A DNA stretch of 64,000 nt from Microgenomates group bacterium ADurb.Bin219 (lineage in GTDB: Bacteria > Patescibacteriota > Microgenomatia > UM-FILTER-40-11). Shown here piece after piece: positions 34,814 through 50,629 of this stretch. A program made the translations under genes and the position numbers. The notes beneath the pieces were generated by a model, which made no database searches, was not told the origin of the DNA, and saw only the letters and a program-made list of their open reading frames with translations. Positions within the stretch are counted from its first letter, which is position 1; every line of letters starts with the position of its first letter. The stretch is from the NCBI GenBank assembly GCA_002069945.1, contig MWCH01000002.1, positions 15,164 to 79,163 on the forward strand. The letters are read 5' to 3'.

Positions 34814-35320
34814 TTATCTTAAAAACAAATTCGGCCGAGGCTCCCCGATTACCTTTCCGTAAATCCAGCAATCCAAGCCAAACCAGGATTTTTCTTCAAA
34901 GCCTTCCTGTTTAAAGCCCATTTTTAAATAGAAGTCGTGATTTTTTCTTCCCTGAGTAATTAACGTCAACTTATGGCCGCCGGCCTTTTCAACTTCTTCT
35001 TCCCAACGATTTAATAAATCCCTGGCCAATCCCCGGCCCCGATAACTTTCCCCGACTCCCAGCCAATTGCAATAACTGACTCCGCCGTAAAGACTGTCCG
35101 CCAATAAAAAAGCGGCCGGTTTTTCTTCAATAAATTCCAAAAAACCGAACCATTGATTACTTTTAAGTTTTTCTTCAAAAACATTTTTGGCATAATCTTT
35201 TTCAATTAAAAAGTTAACCAGATCTTCGGAATATTCCGGAAAACCGGTCTTTAAAACTTCTTTAAAAATCAGCAAAAATTGGTCTAAATTTTCTAACGAT
35301 AATTTTTCTATTTTTGTCAT
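34814..35320 (-). CDS. GNAT family N-acetyltransferase (paralog of 4664..5182)
   Basis: Shares GGVSxCxWLxV...YRxxGxxRxLL...HxLTL...FYxKxGF pattern with the upstream GNAT. Confidence 0.65.
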   Translation of the reverse strand: MTKIEKLSLENLDQFLLIFKEVLKTGFPEYSEDLVNFLIEKDYAKNVFEEKLKSNQWFGFLEFIEEKPAAFLLADSLYGGVSYCNWLGVGESYRGRGLARDLLNRWEEEVEKAGGHKLTLITQGRKNHDFYLKMGFKQEGFEEKSWFGLDCWIYGKVIGEPRPNLFLR

Positions 35321-35427
35321 TCCAAAGAGTTAATTTTTAATTGATAAATTAATTAATTGTTTATAGATTTGTGTTTATTTCGGTAATTAATTCAAATTTT
35401 CTCCGGGGTAAATAAATTGTTCTTAGT

Positions 35428-36462
35428 TCAAAGTTCTAGCCTTTCCATAAGAATTTCTTTATTAAGCCAATTGTTTATGTCGGCCGCTTTGATGATCCCT
35501 TTTTTGGCCCCGACCTGGCTGACAACCGAAGTCGCATTGGCAGAGGCAATTTTTAAACAATCGCTTAGTGAAAACTCTTTAATTATTCCGGCGACTAAAC
35601 CGGAACCGAAAGAGTCCCCGGCTCCGGTTGTCTCCACCCGGGGAACGTCATCAAAAATTCCGCAATGCCACCAAAAAGAATCGCCTTTTTGGTGGAGATA
35701 TGAACCGTTTCGGTCATCGGTAATCACGACAAAACGGCAAGGCAATTCGCCCGCCTTACTCAGTAATTCTTTCATTTCCCATTCTTCACCCTCGCCCCCC
35801 AATAGTTCTTCCATTTCTTCTTTGTTGATATTTAGGAGTGTTATCCCCGGTAATATTGCCGCTACTTTTTCTTTTTGTTTTAATTCACCGCCGCCCGGAT
35901 TCCAAGCGACCTTAGGAGCTTGCCCTTGCGCAGACCCGAGGGAATGAGGAGGAACCAGCAATCTCTCCACTATTTTCAAATTTCCTTCCACCGAACTGAC
36001 ATAAAACCACTTTGTTTCCAATTTTTCCCAAGGTATTTCCGTCTCTTCCAGCTTGGTTTCTCCCCGATAAATTAAAATCGTCCGGCCGCCGTCGGGCGCC
36101 CATAGAATCGTTGAATAATCGGTATTCCCTTTTTCGTCAGGAACACAAAAATCCGTCGCCACTCCTTCTTTGGCCAAGTCCTCTTTAATCTTTTTTCCGG
36201 CAAAATCCGGGGCCAATTTAACCACTGAGGCAACTTTTAATCCCTGGCGGGCAAAAGTAACAGCCGAATTCGTTCCTCCTCCACCTGACTCAAAATAAAT
36301 TTCGTCAACGGGAATTTTCGCTCCGTAGCGGACGCAAATATCCTTGCTTCCTCCCTCCCTTTCTATCTCCAGTCCTTTGGAGCGTATAAAAACGTCCAGA
36401 GTAGCGGAACCGATGGAAATAACGTCAAACATTTTCATCTTAATTTTATAAACTAGCCCCAA
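35428..36462 (-). CDS. PfkB-family carbohydrate kinase (probable phosphofructokinase/ribokinase-like)
   Basis: GGGGTNSAVTFARQG and C-terminal TTGAGDSFGSG PfkB signatures; immediately upstream-overlapping the class I aldolase gene. Confidence 0.75.
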   Translation of the reverse strand: MGLVYKIKMKMFDVISIGSATLDVFIRSKGLEIEREGGSKDICVRYGAKIPVDEIYFESGGGGTNSAVTFARQGLKVASVVKLAPDFAGKKIKEDLAKEGVATDFCVPDEKGNTDYSTILWAPDGGRTILIYRGETKLEETEIPWEKLETKWFYVSSVEGNLKIVERLLVPPHSLGSAQGQAPKVAWNPGGGELKQKEKVAAILPGITLLNINKEEMEELLGGEGEEWEMKELLSKAGELPCRFVVITDDRNGSYLHQKGDSFWWHCGIFDDVPRVETTGAGDSFGSGLVAGIIKEFSLSDCLKIASANATSVVSQVGAKKGIIKAADINNWLNKEILMERLEL

Positions 36463-37205
36463 ATCGTCTTCGCCATTTTAGCCGTAATACTTAGCGGATC
36501 AGCCGATTGCCACACATTTCTCCCTACTGCCATCCCGATTGCTCCCGCCTCAAGAGAATCGCCAACCATCTTCAAGAAGCTTTCTTCGGCCATTTTAGAG
36601 CCTCCCATCACCACTACTTTTGTCTTACCGGCAGCTGCCACTGCCCACTTGAAAGAAACGATATCGCCCGTATAGCGGATTTTGACGATGTCTGCCCCCA
36701 ATTCCAGCCCGACCCGAGCGGCATAAGCCACCATTTTCGGATCCGATTCGTCGGGAATATTTTTTCCCCGCGGGTACATCCAGGCAATAACCGGAATGCC
36801 CGCCTCTTCCGCTTCCTGCTCAATCCTCCCGAATTCCTGGGTCATGAGAGATTCAAATTCGCTGCCGACATAAATCGTGTAGCCGACGGCGCTGGCTCCA
36901 TAGCTGACCGCTTCGGCCACCGAACAAAGCTGGGGAGAATAGGGATCAACCTCTTTGACCAAATTGGTTTTGCCGTTTAATTTGACAATCAAAGGAACCC
37001 GGTATTTTTTCTTCCAATAATATTTTTCCGCCGGGCCTTTTTGCAAAATCACGCCGGTAAAATATCCGGAATCAGCAATTTCCAAAACTTTTTCCGGATC
37101 AACATTTGCCTCGTTAAAATCGGTCGGCCCATGCTCAAAACCCTGGTCGTAGGCCAGAAAGAGAGCCCGTCCGTTTCTTGTTATTTTATCTAAAATATCG
37201 GGCAT
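36453..37205 (-). CDS. Class I fructose-bisphosphate aldolase, archaeal DhnA type
   Basis: LAYDQGFEHGPTDF motif and 250-aa length characteristic of the DhnA/FbaB family. Confidence 0.75.
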   Translation of the reverse strand: MPDILDKITRNGRALFLAYDQGFEHGPTDFNEANVDPEKVLEIADSGYFTGVILQKGPAEKYYWKKKYRVPLIVKLNGKTNLVKEVDPYSPQLCSVAEAVSYGASAVGYTIYVGSEFESLMTQEFGRIEQEAEEAGIPVIAWMYPRGKNIPDESDPKMVAYAARVGLELGADIVKIRYTGDIVSFKWAVAAAGKTKVVVMGGSKMAEESFLKMVGDSLEAGAIGMAVGRNVWQSADPLSITAKMAKTIWG

Positions 37206-37230
37206 TTTTAAAAAAATAGATTGGAAACAA

Positions 37231-38196
37231 TTATTTATCGCCCACCAAATTAGGCGGTTGGCGGTTGTTAAGCGCTTCTATTATATTCAGGGCGGCCAGG
37301 CGCGCCATATCATCCCTTACTTCCTTAACCGACGAAGCAATATGAGGAGTTAAAATCACGTTGGGCAAGCCGCATAATTCCGGATTAACCTCCGGTTCGT
37401 ATTCATGAGTGTCAATTGCCGCCCCCGCCAATTTGCCCTTTTTTAAAGACTCAACCAAAGCCGCTTCGTCAACAATTCCGCCTCGGCTGGTATTGATCAA
37501 GAAAGCGCCGTCTTTCATCAATTGTATTTCCCGATCGCCAATCAAATGCCGACTTTCTTTGGTCAGGGGAACATGAACGGAAACAATATCCGCTTCCCTT
37601 AATAAATTTTCCAAACTCAGATATTCCAGACGATATTTTTTTTCCATTTCGCCATCGCGATTTCTTTTGTAATAAACAACCCTCAGTCCAAAAGCGCTGG
37701 CCATTTTTGCAACCAAACAACCTATTCCGCCCAGGCCAATAATTCCCAAAGTTTTGCCGGTTAAATTCTGGCCTAAAAAGATTTCCGGCTTCCAGCCGCC
37801 AAAATTGCCTTTGCGGGCAAACTCATCCCCCTCCACAATCCTTTTTAATAAGGAAAAAATCAACCCGACGGTAAATTCCGCCACTGCCTGACCAGAAAGA
37901 AGACTGGGGGTATTGGAGACCAGAATATTTCTTTGCCGGGCAGCGGCCAAATCGATATTCTCAAAACCGACCCCGTAATTGGCAATTATCTTTAATTGCT
38001 TCCCGGCCGCGTCCATTATCTCGGCGTCAATTTTATCCAGCAATAAACAAAGAATCGCGTCCGCCCCTTTGACAAATTCCTTCATCTGTTCCCGACTCAA
38101 AAGTTTTTCCGATTCGTTGCCGACAACTTCAAAACCGGCGTCCTCCAGCATATCAATACCGAGCCTGGGAATTTTTCTGGTAACAACCACTTTCAT
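37231..38196 (-). CDS. D-isomer-specific 2-hydroxyacid dehydrogenase (glycerate/phosphoglycerate dehydrogenase-like)
   Basis: NAD-binding GIIGLGGIG and catalytic region ...TPHIASS... Confidence 0.8.
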   Translation of the reverse strand: MKVVVTRKIPRLGIDMLEDAGFEVVGNESEKLLSREQMKEFVKGADAILCLLLDKIDAEIMDAAGKQLKIIANYGVGFENIDLAAARQRNILVSNTPSLLSGQAVAEFTVGLIFSLLKRIVEGDEFARKGNFGGWKPEIFLGQNLTGKTLGIIGLGGIGCLVAKMASAFGLRVVYYKRNRDGEMEKKYRLEYLSLENLLREADIVSVHVPLTKESRHLIGDREIQLMKDGAFLINTSRGGIVDEAALVESLKKGKLAGAAIDTHEYEPEVNPELCGLPNVILTPHIASSVKEVRDDMARLAALNIIEALNNRQPPNLVGDK

Positions 38197-38223
38197 AAAA
38201 TAATTCCAATTTCTATTGGTTAA

Positions 38224-39144
38224 TTAAGTTAATTCTTTAATTGCCCTAGCTATATTATTCCCGTTAAGGCCGTATTTTTCAAGCAACTCTTCTCTGGTCC
38301 TAGCCGATTCGCCAAAAACATCCGGAATTCCCAAAATTTTTATCGGCAGAGGATATTTCCCGGCCAATAACTCGCTGGCGGCACTACCCAGTCCGCCATA
38401 AATTGAATGTTCTTCCACTACTAAAACTTTTCCGGTTTTGGCGGCCGATTTTAAAATCGTTTCTTTATCCAACGGCTTTACCGAATAAACATCAATTACT
38501 TCTACGTCAAAATTCTCCGCGGCGCTGATAACTTCCTGTAAAATTGGGCCGTGGCTTAAAACGGTCAGGTCTTTCCCCTCCTGCAAAATTCTCGCTCCTC
38601 CAATTTTTAATTTTTCATTTTTATTTTTTATTTCCGAAGGTACTTCCGACTTTGAAATTCTGATATACACCGGGCCATTATGTTGCGCTGCTAAATCTAC
38701 TAACGAAGCCACTTCCTGGCCGTCAAATGGACAGAGAACAACCATCTCCGGCAAACTCCTCATTAAAGCAATATCTTCAACCGATTGTGCACTTGCGCCA
38801 TCACCGGAATTGGAAAAACCCAAGTGACCACCGACCAATTTAACATTGGCTTTATTCTGGCAAACGGAAACCCGGATTTGATCAAAGCACCTTCCTGGCA
38901 GAAAAACCGCAAAAGAAGCCGCAAAAGGAAGAAAACCTGCCAAAGAAAGACCGGCCGCCACGCCGATTAAGTTTTGTTCCGCTACCCCAACATTAAAGAA
39001 TCGCTCCGGAAATTTTTCTTTAAAGTCGGTCAATTTTAAAGACGTTTCCAGATCGGCAGTCAAAACCAAAATTTGAGAATTAGTCTTGGCCAATTCCAAT
39101 AAGGCATCCCCAAAATAATCGCGTTGTTGTTTTAATTGCGTCAT
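38224..39144 (-). CDS. Transketolase, C-terminal (pyrimidine-binding) subunit
   Basis: FNVGVAEQNLIGVAAGLSLAG motif; split-transketolase arrangement with the next gene. Confidence 0.85.
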   Translation of the reverse strand: MTQLKQQRDYFGDALLELAKTNSQILVLTADLETSLKLTDFKEKFPERFFNVGVAEQNLIGVAAGLSLAGFLPFAASFAVFLPGRCFDQIRVSVCQNKANVKLVGGHLGFSNSGDGASAQSVEDIALMRSLPEMVVLCPFDGQEVASLVDLAAQHNGPVYIRISKSEVPSEIKNKNEKLKIGGARILQEGKDLTVLSHGPILQEVISAAENFDVEVIDVYSVKPLDKETILKSAAKTGKVLVVEEHSIYGGLGSAASELLAGKYPLPIKILGIPDVFGESARTREELLEKYGLNGNNIARAIKELT

Positions 39145-39218
39145 TTTTTGTAGTATCTTAATATCTCGTCATATCATTAACTCAAAAAAACGAAATAATC
39201 AGCTATCAAGATAACAAG

Positions 39219-40007
39219 TTATTTTATTTCCTCCTTCGCTTTCTTGTATTCTTCTTCCGTCAGTGTACACGCGTGATAACGCAACTGGTTCTCCATAAAA
39301 GAAACCCCTTTGCCTCTAATCGTCCGGCCAATTATAACCACCGGCATGCCTTTCGCTGGGTCTGAGTTTCTGACTTCTTCGTAAGCACTCAAAATCTGTT
39401 TAAAATCATGGCCGTCAACTTCCATAACCCGCCAACCGAAGGCTTCATATTTTTCTTTAAGTGGTTCAAGAAGAGTAATTTTTTCTGTCTGGCCACCAAT
39501 CTGCAGGCCGTTTCGGTCAATAATTAGGCACAAGTTATTCAATTTATGTTTTGCGGCGAACATGGCTGCCTCCCAAACCTGGCCTTCTTCCTGCTCTCCG
39601 TCCGAAGATAAAATCCAAATAATTCCCGCTTCTTTTTTTATTTTCTTTCCTAAAGCTACTCCTGCTCCAACACTTATTCCCTGACCCAAAGACCCGGTTG
39701 AAGTCTCCACAAAATCAGCCATTTTTTGGTAAGGATGGCCTTGAAATTCGCTCCCTAATTTTCTCAATTTATCCCGCTTCTCGCTTCCGGCTTCCAACTT
39801 CTGATTTAAAACCGAGTACCAGGCCGGGCAAACATGGCCGGCAGACAGAATAAACTTATCCTCTTTTGCCAATGCGCCCCCAAAATAAAGACCAACCAGA
39901 AGATCAACCGAAGAAAGACTTCCGCCCGGATGACCGCTTCCGGCGCGGTAAATCATTTCCACAATTTCCCGTCTCGCCTGACCAGCAATTCTTTCCAAAT
40001 TATCCAT
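39219..40007 (-). CDS. Transketolase, N-terminal (TPP-binding) subunit
   Basis: GSGHPGGSLSSVDLL and GDGEQEEG TPP-binding motifs. Confidence 0.85.
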   Translation of the reverse strand: MDNLERIAGQARREIVEMIYRAGSGHPGGSLSSVDLLVGLYFGGALAKEDKFILSAGHVCPAWYSVLNQKLEAGSEKRDKLRKLGSEFQGHPYQKMADFVETSTGSLGQGISVGAGVALGKKIKKEAGIIWILSSDGEQEEGQVWEAAMFAAKHKLNNLCLIIDRNGLQIGGQTEKITLLEPLKEKYEAFGWRVMEVDGHDFKQILSAYEEVRNSDPAKGMPVVIIGRTIRGKGVSFMENQLRYHACTLTEEEYKKAKEEIK

Positions 40008-40080
40008 TGCTATAATCGTAACCTTTTTGCAGAAAAAAATGAAGCTTTTCTCTTAAGATTTCTTCTCTTAAGCGTTTTTT

Positions 40081-40626
40081 CTATTTGTTCAACTTCTCAA
40101 CTTCTTCCAGCACTTCTTCCGGTGTGGTCACAATCCGGTAAACCTGAAGCTCAATTTCCCGCATCAACATATTGCGGCCAAAAGATTCCATGATCTCATG
40201 CCACCAATCTCCGTAAAGAATCAACGGTCTGTGGTGACCGAAATAAAGCCGGGCCAAACCCCAAGCCATTCCGAATTCGGAAATCGTCCCGGTCCCGCCG
40301 TTAAATACAACATAGATATCGCCTTGATTTAAAAGCTCCAGAGTTCTTTCCAGATAATTTTCCTTCATAATTTCTTCGTCCGCGTGGTTCAGCTGGTCCC
40401 GACCCTCAAAATGGGTCATGTCTTTGGGAACAAAAGAAACAACCGTCGCTTTACCGCCGCCGGCATGAGCGCCTTCGGTTGCTGCCCGCATTACCCCCGG
40501 ACCTCCGCCGTTGACAATATGGTAGCCTTTAGAAGCCAAGAGTTTGGCCGTCTTGTAAGCGGCATCATATTCCGGATCGCCCGGCTTTGATTCCGAATAG
40601 CCGAAAAAAGTCACGGTCTTAATCAT
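40081..40626 (-). CDS. LOG family protein (nucleotide 5'-monophosphate phosphoribohydrolase, TIGR00730-like)
   Basis: GGGPGVMRA...GGTGTISEF Rossmann-fold LOG signatures, 181 aa. Confidence 0.8.
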   Translation of the reverse strand: MIKTVTFFGYSESKPGDPEYDAAYKTAKLLASKGYHIVNGGGPGVMRAATEGAHAGGGKATVVSFVPKDMTHFEGRDQLNHADEEIMKENYLERTLELLNQGDIYVVFNGGTGTISEFGMAWGLARLYFGHHRPLILYGDWWHEIMESFGRNMLMREIELQVYRIVTTPEEVLEEVEKLNK

Positions 40627-40629
40627 TGT

Positions 40630-41289
40630 TTATTTAATTAACGCTGTTAATTCCTCGTATCTTGCCTTTAAATCCCCGGCTTCCCAGAAAGTTTTTCCAA
40701 CATAAAAAACATTGGCGCCGGCTTCTTTACACTTTAAAATATTTCCTTCGTTTAGTCCACCGTCAATTCCTATCTGAACCAAGCTTCCGCCTATCGCCCT
40801 GATCCCTCTAATCTTATCCAAAACCGTGGGGTTAAATTCCTGACCGGAATAGCCGGCCTTAACTGCCATCAATAAAACCTGGTCTGCCAGCGGGTATAAA
40901 TCGGCCGGAATTTTTTCAATATTGGTTTCCAGGTCAATCGCCAAACCAACCTCCATTCCCGAAGCGGCAACTTCTTCCAAAAAAAATTTCAGGTCGCTCA
41001 TCATTTCTATCTGGCCGGTTATCCGGTCCGCCAAAACGTCCCGGCTGCGATTAATCCAATCAAGTGGATCTTTAACCATCAAGTGAAGTTCAGTTTTTAG
41101 CTGATGATCAAAATCCTTCAAGGCCGACAAATCAAAAGTTTTATTGCCAACAAAAATCCCGTCAATGACATCAATTTGTACTTTGGGAACAATACCGTCC
41201 AATAAAAGTAATTTTTCCCGAAGTTCGTTTGGGTCCTTGGTTAGAATAGTCGGAATTATTTCGTTCATTAATTTAACTTCTCGCCTCAC
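40630..41289 (-). CDS. rpe: Ribulose-phosphate 3-epimerase
   Basis: IPTIL...IDVIDGIFVGN...HLMV pattern matching RPE (hxDvMDGxFVPN, HLMV). Confidence 0.7.
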   Translation of the reverse strand: MRREVKLMNEIIPTILTKDPNELREKLLLLDGIVPKVQIDVIDGIFVGNKTFDLSALKDFDHQLKTELHLMVKDPLDWINRSRDVLADRITGQIEMMSDLKFFLEEVAASGMEVGLAIDLETNIEKIPADLYPLADQVLLMAVKAGYSGQEFNPTVLDKIRGIRAIGGSLVQIGIDGGLNEGNILKCKEAGANVFYVGKTFWEAGDLKARYEELTALIK

Positions 41290-41294
41290 CCTTC

Positions 41295-42320
41295 CTACTT
41301 ACCTATCACGATCGCTTCTTCCACTAATCGATGGGCATAGGCCATTTCGTTATCATACCAAACCCCAATTTGAATAAAATCTTCTTCCACCACATTCGTC
41401 ATCGCCATATCCACAATCGCCGAAGCCGAATTGCCGACAATATCGGAGGAAACAATCGGATCGTAAGCCAGAGAAAGTATCTCTTTGAGTTTTTCCTCGG
41501 CCGCCTTTTGAAAAGCCCGGTTAACCGCATCAACCGTAACTTTTTTCTCCAATTTAAAAGTCAGGTCGGAAAACGAGCCACAGCCAACCGGAACGCGAAT
41601 CGCCGTACCGGCGAACTTGCCTTTCAAATCCGGAAAAATCGCGACCACCGACTCGGCCGCGCCGGTTTCCGTCGGAATAATATTAAGAGCGGCACTCCGT
41701 CCTCTTCTTAAATCTTTATGTGAGCCGTCCACTAATTCCTGGTCGGCCGTATAGGCATGAATAGTCGTTAGAACCGCCTGGCCGATACCGAATTCGTCTT
41801 TAATAACCTTCACCACCGGCGCAACGCAATTGGTCGTGCAGGAACCGTTGCTGATAATTTTTTCTCCCCGGTAACGGTGGAGGTTAACCCCCACCAAATA
41901 AATCGGAATTTCCTTGCTTTTGGGCGGCGCGGAAATAATTACTTTTTCCGCTCCGACCAAAAGATGTTTTTCCGCTTCCGGCCAAGAACGGAAAACCCCG
42001 GTCGCCTCAAGAACAACTTGGGGCTGGTAGGTATACCAAGGAATTTTTAATAAATCTTTTTCCGCCAAAATCGGATAACGCCGGCCTTCAATTTCCAGAG
42101 CCCCGATTTCCTTTGAGCCGGCCGGCTCAACGACCTTAATTTCCCGAGGAAAACGGCCGTAAATCGTATCGTATTTAAGCAGATATGCCCAACCGGCGGC
42201 ATCCATGGAACCGGAAGTATTAATGGCAACGACTTCCGCTTCCTTCAGGTGATTTAAAACCGCCACCCGAAAGGCCAACCGGCCAATCCGGCCAAAACCG
42301 TTAATTGAAATTCTAACCAT
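41295..42320 (-). CDS. gap: Glyceraldehyde-3-phosphate dehydrogenase
   Basis: N-terminal INGFGRIGR and active-site SCTTNC. Confidence 0.9.
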   Translation of the reverse strand: MVRISINGFGRIGRLAFRVAVLNHLKEAEVVAINTSGSMDAAGWAYLLKYDTIYGRFPREIKVVEPAGSKEIGALEIEGRRYPILAEKDLLKIPWYTYQPQVVLEATGVFRSWPEAEKHLLVGAEKVIISAPPKSKEIPIYLVGVNLHRYRGEKIISNGSCTTNCVAPVVKVIKDEFGIGQAVLTTIHAYTADQELVDGSHKDLRRGRSAALNIIPTETGAAESVVAIFPDLKGKFAGTAIRVPVGCGSFSDLTFKLEKKVTVDAVNRAFQKAAEEKLKEILSLAYDPIVSSDIVGNSASAIVDMAMTNVVEEDFIQIGVWYDNEMAYAHRLVEEAIVIGK

Positions 42321-43386
42321 AATTAGTAAGAGCTTTTATCCCGGGAAGAGTTCCTTGAGCAAGAAACTCTAGCATAGCGCCTCCTCCTAAGGATACAAAG
42401 TCCATTTTAGACAAAATTCCAAACTTATTCAAAGCGTTAATGGTATCGCCACCACCAACAACCTTAAAAGCTTTGCTCTCTGCAATTGCCTCCGCAATTT
42501 TCCTTGTTCCCGCTTCCCACTTCTCATCCTCACATCTTCCCAAAGGTCCATTCCAAACAATCGTCCCGGCGGTTTTAATAATTTCTTCAAATTCTTCAAT
42601 TGTTTCTTCGTTGATATCAAGCCTGTCGTCAGTCAAATCTCCCCAACTGACATTTTTATTCTCCTGCTCTTTTACTCTTTTACCCTGTGACAAAGTTCCG
42701 CCCACTAAAACAGAATCTGCTTTTGAGGCAAACTCTGCCACCATCGGTATCTTTGTCTCCGGTTTTGCGCCACCGATAATAAAGACCAGAGGTCTTTGAG
42801 GATTTTCCAAGATTTGAGAGAGATTTTCTACTTCCTCAAGAAAATGAAAACCGGCACAATGAGGTAAAAATTTGGGCAACCCAACAAGGGAAGCATGTTC
42901 CCGGTGAGAGGCAGCAAAAGCTTCATTAACATAAAAATCGCCCAAAAAAGAAAGGCTTTTGGCAAATTCTAAATCATTAGCCTCTTCGCCGGGATAAAAC
43001 CTTAAATTTTCCAACAACCAAAGGTTTTCCTCTAAAATGTAGACGGGAAAGTTTTGAATTTTTAATTGAACTTTTAGCTTCTCGCCTGCTCCATTCTGGG
43101 AATCCCTTCTGGATGTAGCTTTTAGCTTCAAAAGATCTTTGATTTTTTGCGCCACCGGAGCCATTTTTAACTCTTCTACCACCTCACCTTCTGGTCGCCC
43201 CAAGTGTCCCATTAAAATCACCTTCGCCCCCTTTTCAAGAAGGTATTCTACTGTCGGCAAGCAAGCTTTTATCCTCGTCTCGTCCTCCACTCTTATCTCT
43301 CGCTCTACCAAGGGCACGTCAATATCACAACGGACTAAGACATTTTTATTTTGGAAATCAAAATCTGTCAGTTTGGAAAGCTTCAT
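42313..43386 (-). CDS. pgk: Phosphoglycerate kinase
   Basis: N-terminal VLVRCDIDVP and overall PGK architecture (somewhat short at 357 aa). Confidence 0.8.
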   Translation of the reverse strand: MKLSKLTDFDFQNKNVLVRCDIDVPLVEREIRVEDETRIKACLPTVEYLLEKGAKVILMGHLGRPEGEVVEELKMAPVAQKIKDLLKLKATSRRDSQNGAGEKLKVQLKIQNFPVYILEENLWLLENLRFYPGEEANDLEFAKSLSFLGDFYVNEAFAASHREHASLVGLPKFLPHCAGFHFLEEVENLSQILENPQRPLVFIIGGAKPETKIPMVAEFASKADSVLVGGTLSQGKRVKEQENKNVSWGDLTDDRLDINEETIEEFEEIIKTAGTIVWNGPLGRCEDEKWEAGTRKIAEAIAESKAFKVVGGGDTINALNKFGILSKMDFVSLGGGAMLEFLAQGTLPGIKALTNYG

Positions 43387-43400
43387 TTAAATTCGTCCAA

Positions 43401-43856
43401 TTAGTCTAATTGGTCCAATTTCTCAATTCTTCTCTCCTTTTTCTCTTCTGAGGAAAATTCCGTTCCCAAAAAAGTTTTAATAATGTTTTTTGCCGTTTCT
43501 TCATCAAGAAAATCCGCCGCTAGAGCAAGGCAATTAATATCATCGTCTTCTCTGGCTTTTTTAATCTGCTCTGCCGAAAATCCTAAGCCACATCTTATTC
43601 CCGTAAATCTATTGGCCGCGATATCTATACCCACCCCGCTTCCGCAAATAACAACACCCAATACCTTTTCTTCTACTCTTTCACTCTCCTGCCCTTTGAC
43701 GCTCTTCGCGACCAAGGCGGCGAAGTCTGGATAATCATCTTCCGGATCTAAACGATTATTGCCCATATCTTCATACTCCTGACCCCACTCGGTAAGCCAG
43801 AGTTTTACTTTTTCTTTTAAATTGTAACCGCGATGATCGGAAGCAATAAAAATCAT
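43401..43856 (-). CDS. rpiB: Ribose-5-phosphate isomerase B
   Basis: MIFIASDHRGYNLKEKV N-terminus and GSGVGI motif typical of RpiB/LacAB. Confidence 0.85.
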   Translation of the reverse strand: MIFIASDHRGYNLKEKVKLWLTEWGQEYEDMGNNRLDPEDDYPDFAALVAKSVKGQESERVEEKVLGVVICGSGVGIDIAANRFTGIRCGLGFSAEQIKKAREDDDINCLALAADFLDEETAKNIIKTFLGTEFSSEEKKERRIEKLDQLD

Positions 43857-43876
43857 TTCGCTTCTCCCTTCCCGCC

Positions 43877-44542
43877 TTAATTACTAATAATTAATTCTAA
43901 CAACTTTTCCTTTGGTTTCTCCGCTAAAACAACCGCCGATGAAATCAAAACCCCTTTCGCTCCCCGCTTTTCCGCCATTTCTAAATCTTTTTTTGAATGA
44001 ATTCCCGCGCCAACAATTAAAGGAATTTTTCCGCAGATTTCTGCCGCGTGTTTAATTGCTTTGGGCGCTTTCTCGGTAATAGAATCTTTTGTTCCGATCA
44101 ATTCCGCAATTTCATAGGCCATATAATCCGGTTGAAGCTTTACCAATCTTTCCATCTGCCCCAAAGTTTTACAACAAATCATCGCTTCAAAATTTCTATT
44201 TTTTAATTTCAAATTTCTAATTCCGGAAATGGTTTGTTTGATAGTACCGGGCGGAAGCGGGTGTTCCGAATGATTTAATAAAGTTCCGCCGGCTCCCGCT
44301 TCAATCGCCGCTTCCAAATTTTGCCAACCGGTAAATTGACCTTGTCCAAATTGATCCAAATGCTGAGTCCAAATCGGAATTTTAACCACTTGTTTTACCC
44401 GATATAAATCTACTGTTTGAACCACCGGAATAATTTCCCCTCCCGATTCCCGCGATACCTCCTCGCATATTTTGGCCAATTCCACCGCCTTTTCTCCGGT
44501 TCCCTGGGGATAAGTTTTGAAATTGATAAATATTTTAAACAT
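43877..44542 (-). CDS. tpiA: Triosephosphate isomerase (short archaeal-type)
   Basis: INFKTY N-terminal motif, ~220 aa length, GAGIHS near C-terminus. Confidence 0.75.
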   Translation of the reverse strand: MFKIFINFKTYPQGTGEKAVELAKICEEVSRESGGEIIPVVQTVDLYRVKQVVKIPIWTQHLDQFGQGQFTGWQNLEAAIEAGAGGTLLNHSEHPLPPGTIKQTISGIRNLKLKNRNFEAMICCKTLGQMERLVKLQPDYMAYEIAELIGTKDSITEKAPKAIKHAAEICGKIPLIVGAGIHSKKDLEMAEKRGAKGVLISSAVVLAEKPKEKLLELIISN

Positions 44543-44549
44543 TCTTGCT

Positions 44550-45107
44550 CTATCTTAACCCATATTCACCCAATTTAAAATATTCCGGTCCTTTTGGGGA
44601 AAGAATACTTTGATATAAAATCAATTTCTCCGCCAAAAATTCTTTATTTAAATTTACCCGGGCAATTTTTTTATTAAGGTTCCCCGGCATTTTAATTTTT
44701 TCCGGAATCCTGCCAATAGTACAGTGGGGAGAATATTCAAAATGCTCCCTTTCCAACATCAGGCCCTCCTTGAGCAAACCATCAATCAATTTTTTATATA
44801 AAGAAAAGGCTTTTTCCTTCTGGCCACCGGCGTTAAACCAAATCCCCCTTGGTCTCTTGTTGTCCGGAAAAATCGCCAGGTTTTGTAAAGATAAAGTAAA
44901 TTTAGAGAAAGAAGAAGCTAGTTCCGATAAAGTTTTTTTAACCTTTTCTAATTCTTCTTCATCCCGCTCTCCCAAAAACACCAAGGTTAGATGAAGATTT
45001 TCTCTGGCCACCAATCTTAAGGGAATCTCTTTGAAAATTTTCTGAGAAATTTCGGAAACTTCCTTTTTTAAATCCTCCGATAAATCAATTGCCGTAAAAA
45101 CTCTCAT
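44550..45107 (-). CDS. thpR: RNA 2',3'-cyclic phosphodiesterase / 2'-5' RNA ligase family (2H phosphoesterase)
   Basis: Two H-x-T-x motifs (HLTLVFLG, HCTIGRI). The track start at 45158 is a TTG; the ATG at 45107 (MRVFTAIDL) has a GAGGAAAG RBS and overlaps the upstream gene's stop as ATGA. Confidence 0.75.
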   Translation of the reverse strand: MRVFTAIDLSEDLKKEVSEISQKIFKEIPLRLVARENLHLTLVFLGERDEEELEKVKKTLSELASSFSKFTLSLQNLAIFPDNKRPRGIWFNAGGQKEKAFSLYKKLIDGLLKEGLMLEREHFEYSPHCTIGRIPEKIKMPGNLNKKIARVNLNKEFLAEKLILYQSILSPKGPEYFKLGEYGLR

Positions 45108-46069
45108 TTTGTTTCTTTCCTCAACCCCGGAACAACTTGTGGCAATTTTTCTTGGCAATCACCCAAGACCACTAAATCATTTTGATCAAGATAATCAGGA
45201 ATAGTTCTTTCTGTTAAAGTGAAGGAAACAATTGTTAGATTTGGCCTCTCTCTTTTAAGATAATTAATTATTCCCCGATCATCTTTACTTAACCCAACCG
45301 TAATTAATATCTTTGCGTCTATTGCCCTTTTTCTGACCTTATCAAAAGCGCCGCTTTCTAAATCAAGATGAATCGCCGAAACTCGACTACCCTTTGCCTC
45401 GTGCTTTAAATCGGTATTTTCCGTAAAAATTATTGTTCCCGGCTTAGCTTCAATCACACCGGCAATCGCTTCGTGTGCCGGGGTAGAAGTATCGGTAAAA
45501 AGCTGATTGGCGAATTGCCTTACTTTTGCCGCCAATATTCCGGGATTTTCCCTAAATTGCTTTACGAAACCAACGCCCCCATTATTTAATCCTAAATTCT
45601 CTTTTAATTGATCCATGTTCCAGGCTGGTTTTTCCCCAGCAGTAGAAATCCCCGCGCCGGTATAAAAAATTAGTTCATCTCCAGATATAGAATTTACTAT
45701 TTCGGCCAGTTCTTCTGCCGAAATCCTTTTAATTTGAGTTTTTTCAATCTCTGTTCTTCTAGGCGACAATCCGTTAATATAATATCCTTCTTTGGAAACT
45801 CGGGACTTTCTTTCTCTTGCCTCGGGTAAATCTGGATAGATTGACTTTTTTCTTCCTTCCTCAACCACTAATCGAATTTCATCTTCATCTATTTCAAAAT
45901 GAGCCGAAGTAATTGCTGACGTTCCGCCAAAATTAAAGGTAAAGCTTGCTCGACGCGGCAGTTTTTGAAATTCTTCGGGTGAGATTTTTTTAGAAAAAAG
46001 AGGGTTTGGATTTTCCTTCGTTAACCCGGTTATTGAAATTCCCGTACATTCCACTGGTCCAACTTCCAT
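45104..46069 (-). CDS. SIR2_2-like (zinc-less SIR2/DHS-like NAD-binding) domain protein with ~140-aa N-terminal domain of unknown function
   Basis: FYTGAGISTAGEKPAWNMDQL (GAGxS...PxW...L), FTENTDLKHE (TQNIDxLHE-like), AIHLD, ILITVGLS. No Zn-binding Cys pairs. Stop TGA overlaps thpR ATG. Confidence 0.55.
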   Translation of the reverse strand: MEVGPVECTGISITGLTKENPNPLFSKKISPEEFQKLPRRASFTFNFGGTSAITSAHFEIDEDEIRLVVEEGRKKSIYPDLPEARERKSRVSKEGYYINGLSPRRTEIEKTQIKRISAEELAEIVNSISGDELIFYTGAGISTAGEKPAWNMDQLKENLGLNNGGVGFVKQFRENPGILAAKVRQFANQLFTDTSTPAHEAIAGVIEAKPGTIIFTENTDLKHEAKGSRVSAIHLDLESGAFDKVRKRAIDAKILITVGLSKDDRGIINYLKRERPNLTIVSFTLTERTIPDYLDQNDLVVLGDCQEKLPQVVPGLRKETK

Positions 46070-46100
46070 ATTTAATTATAATATCATCTATAATATCCTT

Positions 46101-47024
46101 GTGCCAAAAAAACTTTTTCTCGTTCCGGCTTTTTTCTTTGTCTTTTTAATTCTTATCTTTTACCTCTTGCTTTCTCGCTCTCCCGTTTCTTTTATCTCGC
46201 CTCTCGCTTCTCGCCTCTCGACTCACCTCCCAACTCCTACTCCCGCTTCTGTCTCCATTGTCGCTGTCGGTGATATCATGCTCGGCCGGAACGTTAATAA
46301 AAAAATGCACGATTACGACGATTTTCTTTACCCTTTTAGAAAAACGGCCGACTTCCTTTCCGGAGCCGATATTACTTTCGGTAATTTGGAATCTCCTTTT
46401 TTTGACCAATGCCCGGTTGTCGGTAGCGGCACTTTTAAGTTCTGCGGAGATTACCGCTCAGTTGAAGGCTTAAAAACGGCCGGCTTTGACGTTTTGTCTT
46501 TGGAAAACAATCATATTTTGAACTATGGCGAAGAAGGACTTAAACAAACCGTTGATCTTTTAAGACAAAACAATATTTCTCCTTCAACGGCAAACGAGAT
46601 AACGATTAAACGAGCCAACGAGATAACTTTCGGCTTCCTTTCTTTTTCCTACGACCGTAATTTGGACCAAGCCCTGGAAAAAGTCAAACAAGAAAAAGAT
46701 AAGGTTGATGTTTTAATTGTCTCTTTACATTGGGGAGCCGAATACAAAACCAAACCGGCAAAATCCCAAGTTGATTTAGCCCACCAATTAATTGATTCTG
46801 GCGTTAAGGTGATTTTGGGCCATCATTCCCATTGGGTTGGCGAAGTTGAACATTATCAGAACGGATTAATTTTTTATTCCTTAGGTAATTTTGTTTTTGA
46901 CCAAATGTGGAGTGAAGAAACCAAAAAAGGCTTAGTAGCCAAAATTAATTTTGAAGGTAAAAAAATTAAAGATTTTCAAACTTACCAGGTCCTTATCTCC
47001 GACTATTCCCAACCGAGTTTTTAA
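46101..47024 (+). CDS. CapA family (PGA_cap metallophosphatase-like) protein
   Basis: VAVGDIMLGRNV and ADITFGNLESP motifs, signal-anchor N-terminus; GTG start in track. Confidence 0.75.
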   Translation: MPKKLFLVPAFFFVFLILIFYLLLSRSPVSFISPLASRLSTHLPTPTPASVSIVAVGDIMLGRNVNKKMHDYDDFLYPFRKTADFLSGADITFGNLESPFFDQCPVVGSGTFKFCGDYRSVEGLKTAGFDVLSLENNHILNYGEEGLKQTVDLLRQNNISPSTANEITIKRANEITFGFLSFSYDRNLDQALEKVKQEKDKVDVLIVSLHWGAEYKTKPAKSQVDLAHQLIDSGVKVILGHHSHWVGEVEHYQNGLIFYSLGNFVFDQMWSEETKKGLVAKINFEGKKIKDFQTYQVLISDYSQPSF

Positions 47025-47047: not shown

Positions 47048-47665
47048 CTAGCTTTTAACCATGCCGAATTTTTCCGGATAATTCTCTTTTTTGGGTAAAA
47101 CAATAAACAGGGCGTGGTAGTCATCAACCTGGCGTGGTTTTTTTGTTTTGGGATCCAAAACTTCGTTAATATCCCACCAACGCCTTTCAAATTTCAAGAC
47201 ACTAAAACAACGGTCTTTGCCGGCATAGGTTTTGTAGGGATCGGCCAAAGTTACCCAATTCTCCCTGCGGTTGATACCGGTAATAATGCTGTAATGGCCC
47301 GGGTCTTCGTCGTCGGTTTCTTCTTCTTCGTCGTCGTCCTCAAAAACTCCCTGCCACTCAACCCCAACCGGCCGATGGTGTTCGTTAATTAAGGCCGCCA
47401 ATTCCTCAATTGTCGATTGTCTTTTAAACCAAAAGTTCATCCCGGGAGCAACCAAATCGGTCGCAATGGCCAACTCCTCAATCGTCATTCCCTGGTCTTT
47501 TAGTTTATTGGTGGCGGTAATGGCGTTAATGATTTTGGTTTGGTTGATATAAACGCCTTCAAATCTTAATAGCATTTCCAAAACCGCCGGACCGCAACTA
47601 TAACTGCTTAATTGTTTTATCCTGGGAAGTGAAGGAAAAGAAATTTCACTTGAGGTCTTTGGCAT
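47048..47665 (-). CDS. Papain-like Peptidase_C39_2 (BtrH-like) domain protein with acidic insert
   Basis: Catalytic Cys context SYSCGPAVLEMLL, downstream PGHYSII His; poly-acidic stretch EDDDEEEETDDED; 20-nt overlap with the upstream ATP-grasp gene. Confidence 0.55.
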   Translation of the reverse strand: MPKTSSEISFPSLPRIKQLSSYSCGPAVLEMLLRFEGVYINQTKIINAITATNKLKDQGMTIEELAIATDLVAPGMNFWFKRQSTIEELAALINEHHRPVGVEWQGVFEDDDEEEETDDEDPGHYSIITGINRRENWVTLADPYKTYAGKDRCFSVLKFERRWWDINEVLDPKTKKPRQVDDYHALFIVLPKKENYPEKFGMVKS

Positions 47666-48710
47666 ATTTACTCAGCATGCTGGCCAAAAGGTCACTAAAA
47701 CTGACATCATGCAACTTGGCTACTTCGGTAAAGGGCAAGCCCAAATCCGGACCGAAGGCGGTATTGGGGTTAGAGTCGGTAAAGTAAGGCGTGTTTGTCT
47801 GTTCGTCCAACCGAATATCAAACTTAGCGTAATCTTTGTGCTGCAATCCCTGAAAAGCCCGAACCGCCAATCTGGCAATCTTGGTCCTCAGAGGCTCTTC
47901 CACTTTTTTAAACCGGTAGGCTTTTTCGTCATCGTAAGATTCGATGCTGGTAAAAAAATGCTTGCCGTCCGGTTTGGTCCGAAAAACCTTTTCCGCCATC
48001 ATGACGTGGCATTTTTGGTTGTCGTCAAAAACACAAACCGTTATTTCCGGACCGTCAATAAATTTTTCCACTACCACCGGCATTTTATAAGTGGTGATCA
48101 TCTCCTCCACTTTTTTTTCAACTTCTTTGGTCGTCTCCTTAACTGCCTTGTTGTCAATGCCGACACTGCCGCCGCTGCCATTTAGCTTAACGATCAAGGG
48201 CAAGCCCAAATCTTCCTGAATTCCGGTCCCGACCCGGCGGATAAACTGAAAAGCTGGAGTCGGAATCTCATAGGCCAAAAGCAGTCTTTTGGTTAAGTTG
48301 CGGTCGTTGCCAATTACCAAACCCTCTATCCCTGCTCCCGTATAAGGAAGATTGGAAAGTTCCAAAGCCGCCGGAACCGAACTTTGCAAACGGTCTTTTC
48401 CCCGCAAAGTGTCAACCAAATTCAAAACCAAATCCGGCTTGTCTACCAAAAGGTTGGTTAAAAAATATTGATTTCCCGGCGATCCCTTTGCTTCTATCCC
48501 CAATTTTTTGATTTCTTCAACAACTTCGGCCGCCCTTTGTTCGACCTCAACTTCGGCCTTATAAGCATCTTCCGTCGGAAACATTTCTCTTTCAACGTGG
48601 GAGTAAGCAACCACAACCAGCTTTAATTTTTTTAAGGCTTCCTTATCAATTTGAAGCTGAATTTTTTCTTCAACCGGCTCTTTGCCGTTATTGTCGCCGT
48701 TTCCGGTCAT
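47646..48710 (-). CDS. ATP-grasp ligase, D-Ala-D-Ala ligase-like
   Basis: IVKLNGSGGSVGI (Ddl-like KPxxxGSSxGI), ATP-grasp C-terminal Glu/Asn region. Confidence 0.65.
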   Translation of the reverse strand: MTGNGDNNGKEPVEEKIQLQIDKEALKKLKLVVVAYSHVEREMFPTEDAYKAEVEVEQRAAEVVEEIKKLGIEAKGSPGNQYFLTNLLVDKPDLVLNLVDTLRGKDRLQSSVPAALELSNLPYTGAGIEGLVIGNDRNLTKRLLLAYEIPTPAFQFIRRVGTGIQEDLGLPLIVKLNGSGGSVGIDNKAVKETTKEVEKKVEEMITTYKMPVVVEKFIDGPEITVCVFDDNQKCHVMMAEKVFRTKPDGKHFFTSIESYDDEKAYRFKKVEEPLRTKIARLAVRAFQGLQHKDYAKFDIRLDEQTNTPYFTDSNPNTAFGPDLGLPFTEVAKLHDVSFSDLLASMLSKYAKDLK

Positions 48711-48756: not shown

Positions 48757-49695
48757 TCAATTTAAACCAAGGCAAACCAAAAAAGCCAAAAAACCCAGGA
48801 AAAACAAATAAGCAGTCCAGCGCGGAACAATCCGGCCTTTAAAATAACAAATCAATCCGTAAAAGCTTAAAGCGGAAAAAAGAAAGAAAAACCAGGTTAA
48901 ACCGGAAATAATCGGAACCGAAGAAAAAAATAAAGTTGCTCCACCAATTAAAAGGATATTGTATATATTGGAGCCCAAAACATTGCCAGTTGCCGCTTTT
49001 TGCTCATCTTTCCGCGTTCCGATAACGGTAAAAAACAATTCCGGCAAAGAAGTGGCAACCGCCGCCAAAGACAAGCCCAAAAAAGTCGTGGAAATTCCGC
49101 TGATTGAAGAAATTTGTTCAACCGAGCGGACAATAATATTTCCCGACCAAAAAATACCGGCCAAGGAAGCCAACAACAACCAAACGGTTTTCCAGTTTAA
49201 CTTTGTTTCTTCGCGGCAAATATGGCGGGAGTCTTCGTTGTCCCGACCCTCTATTCCCCAGCGGTATTCCTGAAAAGTAAAAAGGGCCGCCAGAAAAAGA
49301 AAAGCAAGGCCGATTAAACGGTAATAAACCCGAAAAACATTTAAAAAGAAAAAGGCAAAAGTTACCGCCACCATTAAGAACGCATTTCTTTGGGTTTTGC
49401 TGATGCCCATTTTTAAATCGGCCAATAAAACGCTAACGGGAAAGACCAAGAAAATATTAACGATATTGGAGCCGACAATATTTCCAATCGCCAAGCCCGG
49501 CTCGTTTTTTAAAACAGCCAAAAACGAGACAGCCAGCTCCGGCAGAGAAGTTCCAATGGCAACAACCGTCACGCCGACAACCAATGGAGAAATCCGCAAC
49601 GACAAGGAAGTTTCAATCGCTGAAGACATAAACGCCCGGGTAGAAAATAAAAGCAATAAAATCGCCAGTAAAAGCAAAAGAAGAGCATTAAGCAT
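48757..49695 (-). CDS. Ca2+/cation antiporter (CaCA / YrbG-like Na+/Ca2+ exchanger)
   Basis: Two alpha-repeats GTSLPELAVS / ATSLPELFFT with GNIVGSNI(V/Y)N, polytopic. Confidence 0.75.
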   Translation of the reverse strand: MLNALLLLLLAILLLLFSTRAFMSSAIETSLSLRISPLVVGVTVVAIGTSLPELAVSFLAVLKNEPGLAIGNIVGSNIVNIFLVFPVSVLLADLKMGISKTQRNAFLMVAVTFAFFFLNVFRVYYRLIGLAFLFLAALFTFQEYRWGIEGRDNEDSRHICREETKLNWKTVWLLLASLAGIFWSGNIIVRSVEQISSISGISTTFLGLSLAAVATSLPELFFTVIGTRKDEQKAATGNVLGSNIYNILLIGGATLFFSSVPIISGLTWFFFLFSALSFYGLICYFKGRIVPRWTAYLFFLGFLAFLVCLGLN

Positions 49696-49789
49696 TTCCT
49701 TTTAATCCTAGCAAAGAAAGTTAAAAAAGAAAAATTGGCCGAAGAAGGTTGAGAGATAAATCAATTTCAAAACTGTTTAGAAAAAAGGT

Positions 49790-50542: not shown

Positions 50543-50629
50543 AACTCAAAACTTAAACCGCAAAACTCAAAACTAAAACTTAAAACTATAACTTCAAAGA
50601 TTTAAGGATTTGAGATTTGGATTTAACAT

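Follow-up and report, generated by a model that had tools for sequence, protein, structure and literature searches.

Two overlapping genes at the head of a glycolysis and pentose phosphate pathway (PPP) operon raise the question of whether their products form a functional unit or are simply neighbors. The genes lie on contig MWCH01000002.1 of Microgenomates bacterium ADurb.Bin219, within the stretch of 64,000 nucleotides (nt) from position 15,164 to position 79,163, which is referred to here as the window and in which coordinates are given. The minus strand of the window carries a 321-amino-acid (aa) SIR2-like open reading frame (ORF; 45104-46069) and a 185-aa 2H/ThpR ORF (44550-45107), and the TGA stop codon of the former lies inside the ATG of the latter, in a common tetranucleotide, ATGA. 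A sequence-only reading of this DNA had proposed that the larger protein is of the SIR2_2 type known from anti-phage systems and that it forms a fixed pair with the 2H phosphoesterase. In the genomes compared, the pair is not conserved, and the two genes do not appear to be a fixed module. The explanation that we favor, and consider reasonably probable, is that these are two functionally independent adjacent genes, in which a sirtuin derivative that cleaves NAD+ or transfers ADP-ribosyl groups occupies a variable slot beside a conserved ThpR operon head. The features on which the argument rests are as follows.

44550..45107, minus strand: ThpR/LigT-type 2H phosphoesterase, 185 aa, conserved first gene of the operon; profile matches above threshold
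45104..45107, minus strand: ATGA stop/start overlap of the sirtuin-like and 2H genes, with a GAGGA Shine-Dalgarno-like motif 8 to 14 nt 5' of the ATG
45104..45733, minus strand: zinc-less Sir2 Rossmann core, residues 113 to 321 plus stop codon
45734..46069, minus strand: N-terminal domain, residues 1 to 112; no Pfam match; conserved across the family

The anatomy described by the sequence-only reading was confirmed, including the ATGA overlap at 45104-45107 and a location heading a glycolysis/PPP operon, with genes for TIM, RpiB, PGK, and GAPDH downstream on the same strand. Both genes are real: homologues were detected at an E value of 1.8e-82 for the sirtuin-like gene, whose product is OQA93637.1, annotated "hypothetical," and at 1e-83 for the 2H gene. 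The identity of the latter as a 2H phosphoesterase was borne out by matches to TIGR02258 (124.6 bits; cut-off, 65.7), PF02834 (LigT_PEase; 68.3 bits), and PF13563 (2_5_RNA_ligase2; 55.1 bits) and by the presence of both HxT motifs, H39-L-T41 and H128-C-T130. Counted from the ATG, its 185-aa length is that of the 2H orthologues; a longer start, at the TTG at 45158, was rejected as an over-call. Among the 39 same-strand junctions in the window, 3 are ATGA, 9 overlap, and 14 are of 10 nt or less. Since overlaps are this frequent, the ATGA overlap alone carries little information.

Conservation of the pair was examined in approximately 150 loci encoding relatives of the sirtuin-like protein, drawn from GTDB genomes, Joint Genome Institute (JGI) metagenomes, and individual contigs. 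A phmmer search with the window 2H protein against the 5423 stop-to-stop ORFs of 144 of these loci gave no match at an E value of ≤1, and a hidden Markov model (HMM) built from 37 2H orthologues gave no match at an E value of ≤10 in loci L001 to L150. The sirtuin-like and 2H genes were neighbors in no other genome examined except a near-identical strain (L157). The 108 immediate neighbors of the relatives were spread over 191 Pfam families, each with at most three members, and all-against-all clustering of approximately 440 neighbors gave a sole cross-phylum cluster, that of PfkB kinases (three loci), a recurrence that was judged compatible with chance. The Pfam content of ten tightly coupled neighbors included WD40 and ankyrin-repeat proteins, RpoD, DUF4230, a TIM-barrel protein, and a methyltransferase. 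As the Pfam survey, the clustering, and the scan of tight neighbors gave no recurrent partner, a conserved partner gene was rejected.

The surroundings of the 2H gene were, on the other side of the comparison, highly regular. The string 2H-TIM-RpiB-PGK-GAPDH-Rpe-LOG-TktN-TktC-2HacidDH (window 37231-45107, minus strand) was conserved in at least four lineages, represented by loci whose 2H proteins are 96, 67, 51, and 41% identical to that of the window (L157, L151, L154, and L159, respectively). The gene upstream of 2H differed between these loci.

Window and near-identical strain L157 (2H, 96%): sirtuin-like gene
L151 to L153 (2H, 67%): aldo-keto reductase
L154 to L156 (2H, 51%): none; the divergent PGA_cap gene is directly adjacent
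L159 (2H, 41%): Zip transporter

The far side of this slot is marked by one further feature.

46101..47024, plus strand: PGA_cap gene, divergent; conserved anchor across the variable slot, with the same divergent gene in L151 to L156

Because the operon string is constant and the upstream gene varies, the 2H gene is the conserved operon head and the sirtuin-like gene an occupant of a variable slot. The sequence-only reading had itself set an unconserved pairing and an ordinary sirtuin identity against its own proposal; the pairing proved to be unconserved, with no 2H gene in the relative loci and a varying slot before 2H, and the family, as described below, lies largely on the canonical sirtuin side. 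A 2H homologue of 38% identity (L161) was without linkage to a glycolysis/PPP operon. To our knowledge, a place as first gene of such an operon is not a described feature of ThpR. Discussion of 2H enzymes usually centers on RNA repair, and the stable tie seen here in Microgenomates to a glycolysis/PPP/ribose operon hints at a metabolic role, for example, 2',3'-cyclic nucleotide salvage, rather than RNA repair.

The sirtuin-like gene is 99.7% identical to its copy in L157, and the flanking genes are 86 to 96% identical. Across window positions 42900-46560, nucleotide identity to L157 was 99 to 100% over a tract that starts in the 5' part of PGA_cap, covers the sirtuin-like gene, and reaches into the first third of 2H; past that point it fell to 84 to 96%, with short 100% patches. 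Recent gene-specific horizontal transfer of the sirtuin-like gene was rejected, because the high-identity tract spans PGA_cap into 2H and the rest is mosaic. The tract could reflect a recombination tract or mosaic, or an artifact of assembly from a strain mixture. The G+C content at third codon positions of the sirtuin-like gene is 29.8%, the lowest in the operon (other genes, 36.5 to 53.8%), which is a mild hint of foreign origin and suggestive only.

The proposed SIR2_2 affiliation of the 321-aa protein also failed. The protein gave no match at an E value of ≤1 to the Pfam families SIR2 (PF02146) and SIR2_2 (PF13289) or to the PADLOC defense models, and it scored 27.7 and 25.8 bits against the NCBIfam CobB models, below their cut-offs of 243 and 320. 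Among 24 aligned relatives, 15 matched PF02146 (E value of ≤0.01; best, 3e-9) and none matched SIR2_2, while weak matches to the PADLOC SIR2 or ThsA models were found in 8 (best, 3.8e-5); the relative P0071 reached 39 bits against PF02146, for which the cut-off is 24 bits. When the family profile was searched against the PDB, Sir2Af2 was matched at 1.9e-14, and all 60 matches listed were canonical sirtuins. Likewise, in a Foldseek search of an AlphaFold2 (AF2) model against the PDB, the best 50 matches were all canonical sirtuins (CobB, Sir2Af1/2, SIRT2/3/5, and Hst2), with E values from 3e-6, a probability of 1.0, and template modeling (TM) scores of 0.38 to 0.54, in keeping with a sirtuin fold. 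The PF02146 matches of the relatives, the family profile, and the predicted fold therefore place the origin of the protein in the canonical sirtuins and not in the SIR2_2 defense lineage, and a SIR2_2/anti-phage identity is not supported.

All four motifs that had been quoted for a zinc-less SIR2-type core are present in the protein, namely, GAGISTAGEKPAWNMDQL (residues 138 to 155), FTENTDLKHE (215 to 224), IHLD (233 to 236), and ILITVGLS (254 to 261). The core residues are GAGIS (138 to 142), TPAH (196 to 199), TENTD (216 to 220), H234, GLS (259 to 261), D263, D298, and GDCQ (303 to 306), among which are the NAD+ pocket residues of canonical sirtuins: GAGIS, TENTD (Q replaced by E), and H234, which aligns to the His of Sir2Af2 ELHG. 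The Cys4 zinc-binding small domain and the substrate-clamping loop of canonical sirtuins are missing; C8 and C305 are the sole cysteines, and 25 residues separate H234 from G259, so that the protein is zinc-less. The description that suits it best is a zinc-less derivative of canonical sirtuins, which lacks both the HMM match and the zinc module of these enzymes and, as far as its relatives' neighbors were surveyed, both the HMM match and the partners of the defense SIR2s.

The N-terminal domain consists of a disordered head, the family motif PLFSKKISPEEF, a four-stranded beta meander (residues 40 to 78), and a linker that carries a conserved YYINGLSPR motif. That this domain belongs to no recognizable family was upheld by the absence of a Pfam match and by structure prediction. 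The full-length AF2 model had a predicted local distance difference test score (pLDDT) of 87 and a predicted TM score of 0.86, and residues 30 to 80 within it had a pLDDT of 83 to 95. The domain modeled alone had a pLDDT of 66 and no fold match in the PDB (best E value, 1.2). No fold was assigned, because the stand-alone model was poor and no fold match was obtained.

An exhaustive profile search, with clusters counted at 50% identity, gave a family of 305 clusters at an E value of ≤1e-30 and 586 at ≤1e-10, with lengths mostly of 300 to 360 aa. Named members are labeled "hypothetical," generic "SIR2 family," or, in the case of long Woesearchaeota fusions, "glycosyltransferase." Residue conservation was computed over 121 non-identical family sequences, in which YTGAGIS, T..AH, TENxD, GL..D, D298, D304, and Q306 vary little or not at all. 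From the catalytic-His position to the GLS strand there are 25 residues in 85 of the 121, and this segment is Cys-free in 81; a segment so short and free of cysteine indicates that the zinc module and the peptide-clamping loop have been lost family-wide. The FR of the sirtuin cofactor loop is replaced or deleted, with PAWN instead, and the TQN of sirtuins has become TEN. We know of no characterized sirtuin deacylase that does without the zinc module. The family architecture includes an N-terminal domain of about 110 residues, with an [FL]LLxxP..IS.EE motif, a four-stranded beta meander, and a YYIDGLxPR linker, for which neither a Pfam family nor a fold relative was detected. Neither a zinc-less sirtuin from candidate phyla radiation (CPR) bacteria or Chlamydiae nor a Legionella Sir2-like effector was found described in the literature. 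The family constitutes a coherent, unannotated, and uncharacterized branch of the sirtuin superfamily with a new N-terminal domain.

A genome scan for relatives with an alignment of the close clade (A2) yielded 61 GTDB loci, comprising 17 from CPR, 14 from Chlamydiae, 3 from Babeliales, and 6 from Holosporales or other Alphaproteobacteria; the remainder include gammaproteobacterial metagenome-assembled genomes (MAGs), Verrucomicrobia, an Omnitrophota, a Bdellovibrionales, and a Woesearchaeote. The family is concentrated overwhelmingly in host-dependent lineages. A tblastn search against plasmids and phages gave no match to the sirtuin-like gene. Signal peptides, called crudely from a hydropathy window, were present as Sec signals in 56 of 155 representatives, directly N-terminal to the conserved [FL]LLxxP..IS.EE motif (for example, P0112, P0116, P0143, L015, L039, L041, and L044). 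These members are mostly from Chlamydiae, Holosporales, and Babeliales: signals were called in 10 of 13 Chlamydiae, in all 3 full-length members from Holosporales/Alphaproteobacteria, and in none of 15 from CPR. By the same measure, the window protein has no signal peptide. Sec export of an NAD+-dependent enzyme would be unexpected if the enzyme were a CobB-like regulator.

Four members are independent fusions to phosphohydrolases: one carries an HD domain (P0069), one a probable N-terminal HD domain (P0070), one a HAD-IIIB acid phosphatase (PF03767) joined to a sirtuin-like domain that follows a signal peptide (P0112), and one a lipoprotein-like signal and a CYTH domain (L020, 5540-7234). A protein of approximately 1650 aa from a Woesearchaeote (L004:59-5062, P0085) adds HEAT repeats and a GT2 glycosyltransferase domain. 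One proteobacterial MAG has two paralogous sirtuin-like genes (L020:3837-8642 and L030:919-3644), each of which overlaps an upstream WD40-repeat gene by 4 nt; an ankyrin-repeat gene follows the sirtuin-like gene of L020, a eukaryote-like-repeat context typical of intracellular symbionts.

The explanation that we favor can be put as follows. The thpR-like 2H gene is a conserved head gene, and the Microgenomates operon that it opens serves lower glycolysis, the non-oxidative PPP, and ribose use; the position upstream of it, next to the divergent PGA_cap gene, is a variable slot that the sirtuin-like gene occupies in this strain lineage. The family stems from canonical sirtuins, with loss of the zinc module and peptide-clamping loops, replacement of FR by PAWN, and gain of the N-terminal beta domain. 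The window protein is predicted to bind NAD+ and to cleave the nicotinamide-ribosyl bond, acting as an NAD+ glycohydrolase or an ADP-ribosyl transferase and not as a canonical lysine deacylase. We infer this chemistry because the nicotinamide pocket (GAGIS, TENxD, and H234) is intact and the parts that hold an acyl-lysine peptide are lost; export in endosymbionts and the fusions to phosphohydrolases point the same way. The sirtuin-like gene would be cotranscribed with the operon from a candidate promoter, and the ATGA overlap would reflect genome compaction rather than an obligate two-enzyme module.

46078..46107, minus strand: the region's best promoter-like match (10/12 positions), TTGGCA-18-TATTAT, in which TG precedes the -10 hexamer

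This site lies 9 nt upstream of the sirtuin-like ATG and is probably the operon promoter in this strain; it is a consensus match only, and the total for the region, 27, is not far above the mean of shuffled sequences (19.7; standard deviation, 4.2). A weaker promoter-like site is internal, at 45188-45217.

Several points weigh against this explanation. The sirtuin catalytic His is kept in 67 of the 121 family members, and the window protein has it as H234. The four members fused to HD, probable HD, HAD-IIIB, and CYTH phosphohydrolases mean that a phosphoesterase partnership is not implausible in principle. Relatives of the operon without the gene in the slot were viewed over approximately 14 kb or less and could carry a sirtuin-like gene elsewhere. 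Finally, a relative of 48% identity (L001) is encoded in an operon of this type, though at a different place within it, between DeoC and PfkB; the order is RpiB-Rpe-LOG-Tkt-Tkt-DeoC-sirtuin-like, followed by a convergent gene and PfkB. Orthologues flanking the gene in L001 are 34 to 60% identical and so have diverged to an extent similar to that of the sirtuin-like gene; given the shared operon type and this matching divergence, the linkage may be ancient and selected rather than accidental. In the close clade, two of eight contexts are glycolysis/PPP operons, and in the other six the gene stands beside RNase J, an Obg-like GTPase, SLT, SmpB, a ParE/Phd pair, or an unknown gene. Across the family, about 7 of 150 loci have a glycolysis/PPP gene no more than 8 kb away, which is close to our own rough estimate of the background for small genomes, and no enrichment is claimed. 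A link of the sirtuin-like gene to the operon or to central metabolism, which the sequence-only reading had raised as a fallback, is possible but weak.

The same evidence bears on the alternatives. That CobB and Sir2Af2 are the nearest relatives in sequence and fold, and that N218, D220, and H234 are present, would suit a genuine CobB-like NAD+-dependent deacylase that regulates the glycolytic and PPP enzymes of its own operon, opposed by the GNAT acetyltransferase encoded at 34814-35320, with the N-terminal domain replacing the zinc module in substrate binding; the occurrence of the gene in the same operon type in two lineages would suit it as well. We regard such a role as unlikely, since the zinc module and the FGE/beta-staple segment are absent (25 aa from the His to the GLS strand), the cofactor-loop FR is missing, the His is not conserved in the family, Sec signal peptides in about a third of members would be odd for a regulator of cytoplasmic enzymes, and six of the eight close-clade contexts are unrelated to sugar metabolism. 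A two-step module, in which the sirtuin-like and 2H proteins act on NAD-derived or RNA-end phosphates with the NAD+ enzyme in the role of KptA/Tpt1, would follow a known logic, whereby the 2H reaction leaves a 2'-phosphate and the NAD+-dependent removal of this phosphate yields ADP-ribose cyclic phosphate (ADPr>p) (PMC9503650, PMC6333775). The ATGA overlap, the common promoter, and the independent fusions to HD, HAD-IIIB, and CYTH phosphohydrolases are consistent with this idea; however, no 2H gene was found in the relative loci, 2H keeps the operon head with other or no genes upstream, overlaps are frequent in this genome, and the Sir2 fold is unrelated to the ADP-ribosyltransferase (ART) fold of KptA, so that the module appears rather improbable.

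The taxonomic distribution, the signal peptides (56 of 155 representatives; 10 of 13 Chlamydiae), and the WD40 and ankyrin-repeat genes that flank the paralogues in one MAG would all accord with an effector directed at a host or the environment, that is, an NADase or ADP-ribosylating enzyme acting on host NAD+ or proteins, with the CPR copy delivered to a host cell or acting on material from it. This appears quite improbable for the window protein, which, like all 15 CPR members examined, has no signal peptide and is encoded within a housekeeping operon with no immunity or secretion-system gene nearby. More improbable by far is an anti-phage SIR2 NADase: the protein is zinc-less like the ThsA, DSR, and SIR2-HerA effectors, and a third of the aligned relatives gave weak PADLOC SIR2/ThsA matches, but the window protein itself matches neither PADLOC nor SIR2_2, the gene sits in a central-metabolism operon with no plasmid or phage copies, and no known defense sensor or partner was seen among the 25 commonest of the 191 neighbor families, in the clustering of about 440 neighbors, or among the ten tightly linked neighbors. 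Given the phosphohydrolase fusions, a less strict tie through NAD+ catabolism, to phosphoesterases and to the ribose-utilizing operon, retains a low probability. In a more specific form, which we offer as a speculation that is rather unlikely to hold, the family would serve host-dependent microbes in harvesting NAD+, as an enzyme that diderm endosymbionts export and CPR keep in the cytoplasm; scavenged NAD+ would be converted to nicotinamide and ADP-ribose, the products processed by variable phosphoesterases (HD, HAD-IIIB, CYTH, and here perhaps 2H), and ribose-5-phosphate passed into the RpiB/Rpe/LOG/Tkt/DeoC/PfkB operon, in which the gene is found in two CPR lineages. If true, this would give a sirtuin-derived fold a new physiological role and would connect it in function, loosely but genuinely, with the neighboring 2H gene.

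Downstream of 2H, the same strand carries another 13 genes, spaced by gaps of -8 to 107 nt and including, in order, TIM-RpiB-PGK-GAPDH-Rpe-LOG-TktN-TktC-2HacidDH-DeoC-PfkB-GNAT. Their products were assigned as follows, the first four by Pfam/NCBIfam scans.

43877-44542, minus strand: TIM
43401-43856, minus strand: RpiB
42313-43386, minus strand: PGK
41295-42320, minus strand: GAPDH
34814..41289, minus strand: remainder of the operon, with Rpe, LOG/SLOG, TktN, TktC, 2-hydroxyacid dehydrogenase, DeoC, PfkB kinase, and GNAT acetyltransferase
34814-35320, minus strand: GNAT acetyltransferase, last gene of the operon

The GNAT gene closes the operon that the sirtuin-like gene heads, and such a pairing would fit acyl-lysine regulation; at the equivalent place in L001 there is no recognizable GNAT. 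The TIM is of a short, 221-aa type that scored 197.7 bits against NF003302 (PRK04302; cut-off, 132) and 102 bits against the tim equivalog TIGR00419, below its cut-off of 130.6. We take NF003302 to cover the short TIM type typical of archaea. In each version of the operon (window, L001, L151, L154, and L159), the LOG/SLOG gene (Lysine_decarbox, LDcluster4; window 40081-40626, minus strand) separates Rpe from transketolase. Some LOG-family proteins are nucleotide 5'-monophosphate nucleosidases, and if the operon LOG is one of these, it would fit a route from nucleotides through ribose-5-phosphate into the PPP. Beyond PGA_cap, at 47048-48710 on the minus strand, there is an overlap between the gene for a C39-like cysteine peptidase (205 aa) and that for an ATP-grasp protein (354 aa; D-Ala-D-Ala ligase C-terminal-like), a pair that could be a peptide-modification cassette; genes for a Na/Ca exchanger and for 2-oxoacid:ferredoxin oxidoreductase subunits follow at 48757-52246.

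Rejection of a SIR2_2-2H cyclic-nucleotide module prevents the false call of a new defense or signaling system. Should the sirtuin-like enzyme turn out to be an NADase or ADP-ribosyltransferase, this would be relevant to the exploitation or manipulation of host NAD+ by CPR, Chlamydiae, Dependentiae, and Holosporales. Among known systems, the canonical sirtuins (CobB/Sir2Af2/Sir2Tm; PF02146) provide the best sequence, profile, and fold matches of the window protein, which shares with them the GAGIS Rossmann core, the AH helix motif (H199, aligned with Sir2Af2 PAH), TxNxD (N218 and D220), H234, G-x-S, and a C-terminal GD. Unlike these enzymes, it has no Cys4 zinc module, peptide-clamping loop, or FR, has TEN for TQN, bears an extra N-terminal beta domain, and falls far below their cut-offs (27.7 versus 243 bits); moreover, the catalytic His is variable in its family, and many members are Sec exported. 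With the defense SIR2 NADases (PF13289; ThsA, DSR1/DSR2, SIR2-HerA, and SIR2-APAZ) it shares a zinc-less core with the N and H residues, and by analogy with them NAD+ hydrolysis rather than deacylation is plausible. It differs from them in having no HMM match, in its absence from mobile elements, and in being nearer to canonical sirtuins by sequence. Of the defense partners SLOG/STALD, TIR, HerA, pAgo, and the DSR C-terminal domain, none was found next to the gene in the window, where the neighbors are PGA_cap and ThpR, or, in the family, among the 25 commonest of the 191 neighbor families, the roughly 440 clustered neighbors, and the ten tightly linked ones.

Host NAD+ is dismantled in the periplasm of Haemophilus, an NAD-auxotrophic, host-dependent bacterium, by the nucleotidase NadN and the class C acid phosphatase e(P4). 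The latter presumably belongs to PF03767, the Pfam family of the HAD-IIIB domain in P0112, and this signal-peptide-bearing fusion to an acid phosphatase resembles the Haemophilus system, as does the export of the enzymes; the NAD+-cleaving steps are carried out by unrelated folds, and the CPR members have no signal peptide. The known system nearest to the module proposed by the sequence-only reading is the 2H-KptA/Tpt1 route, which the locus resembles in that a 2H enzyme stands beside an NAD+-consuming enzyme. Here, however, the NAD+ enzyme has a Sir2 fold and not an ART fold, with no match to the Pfam family PTS_2-RNA, the pairing is not conserved, and the operon is without an RNA ligase or kinase. 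The 185-aa protein corresponds to the ThpR/LigT RNA 2',3'-cyclic phosphodiesterases (TIGR02258), of which it is a full-length member with both HxT motifs and no difference within the protein.

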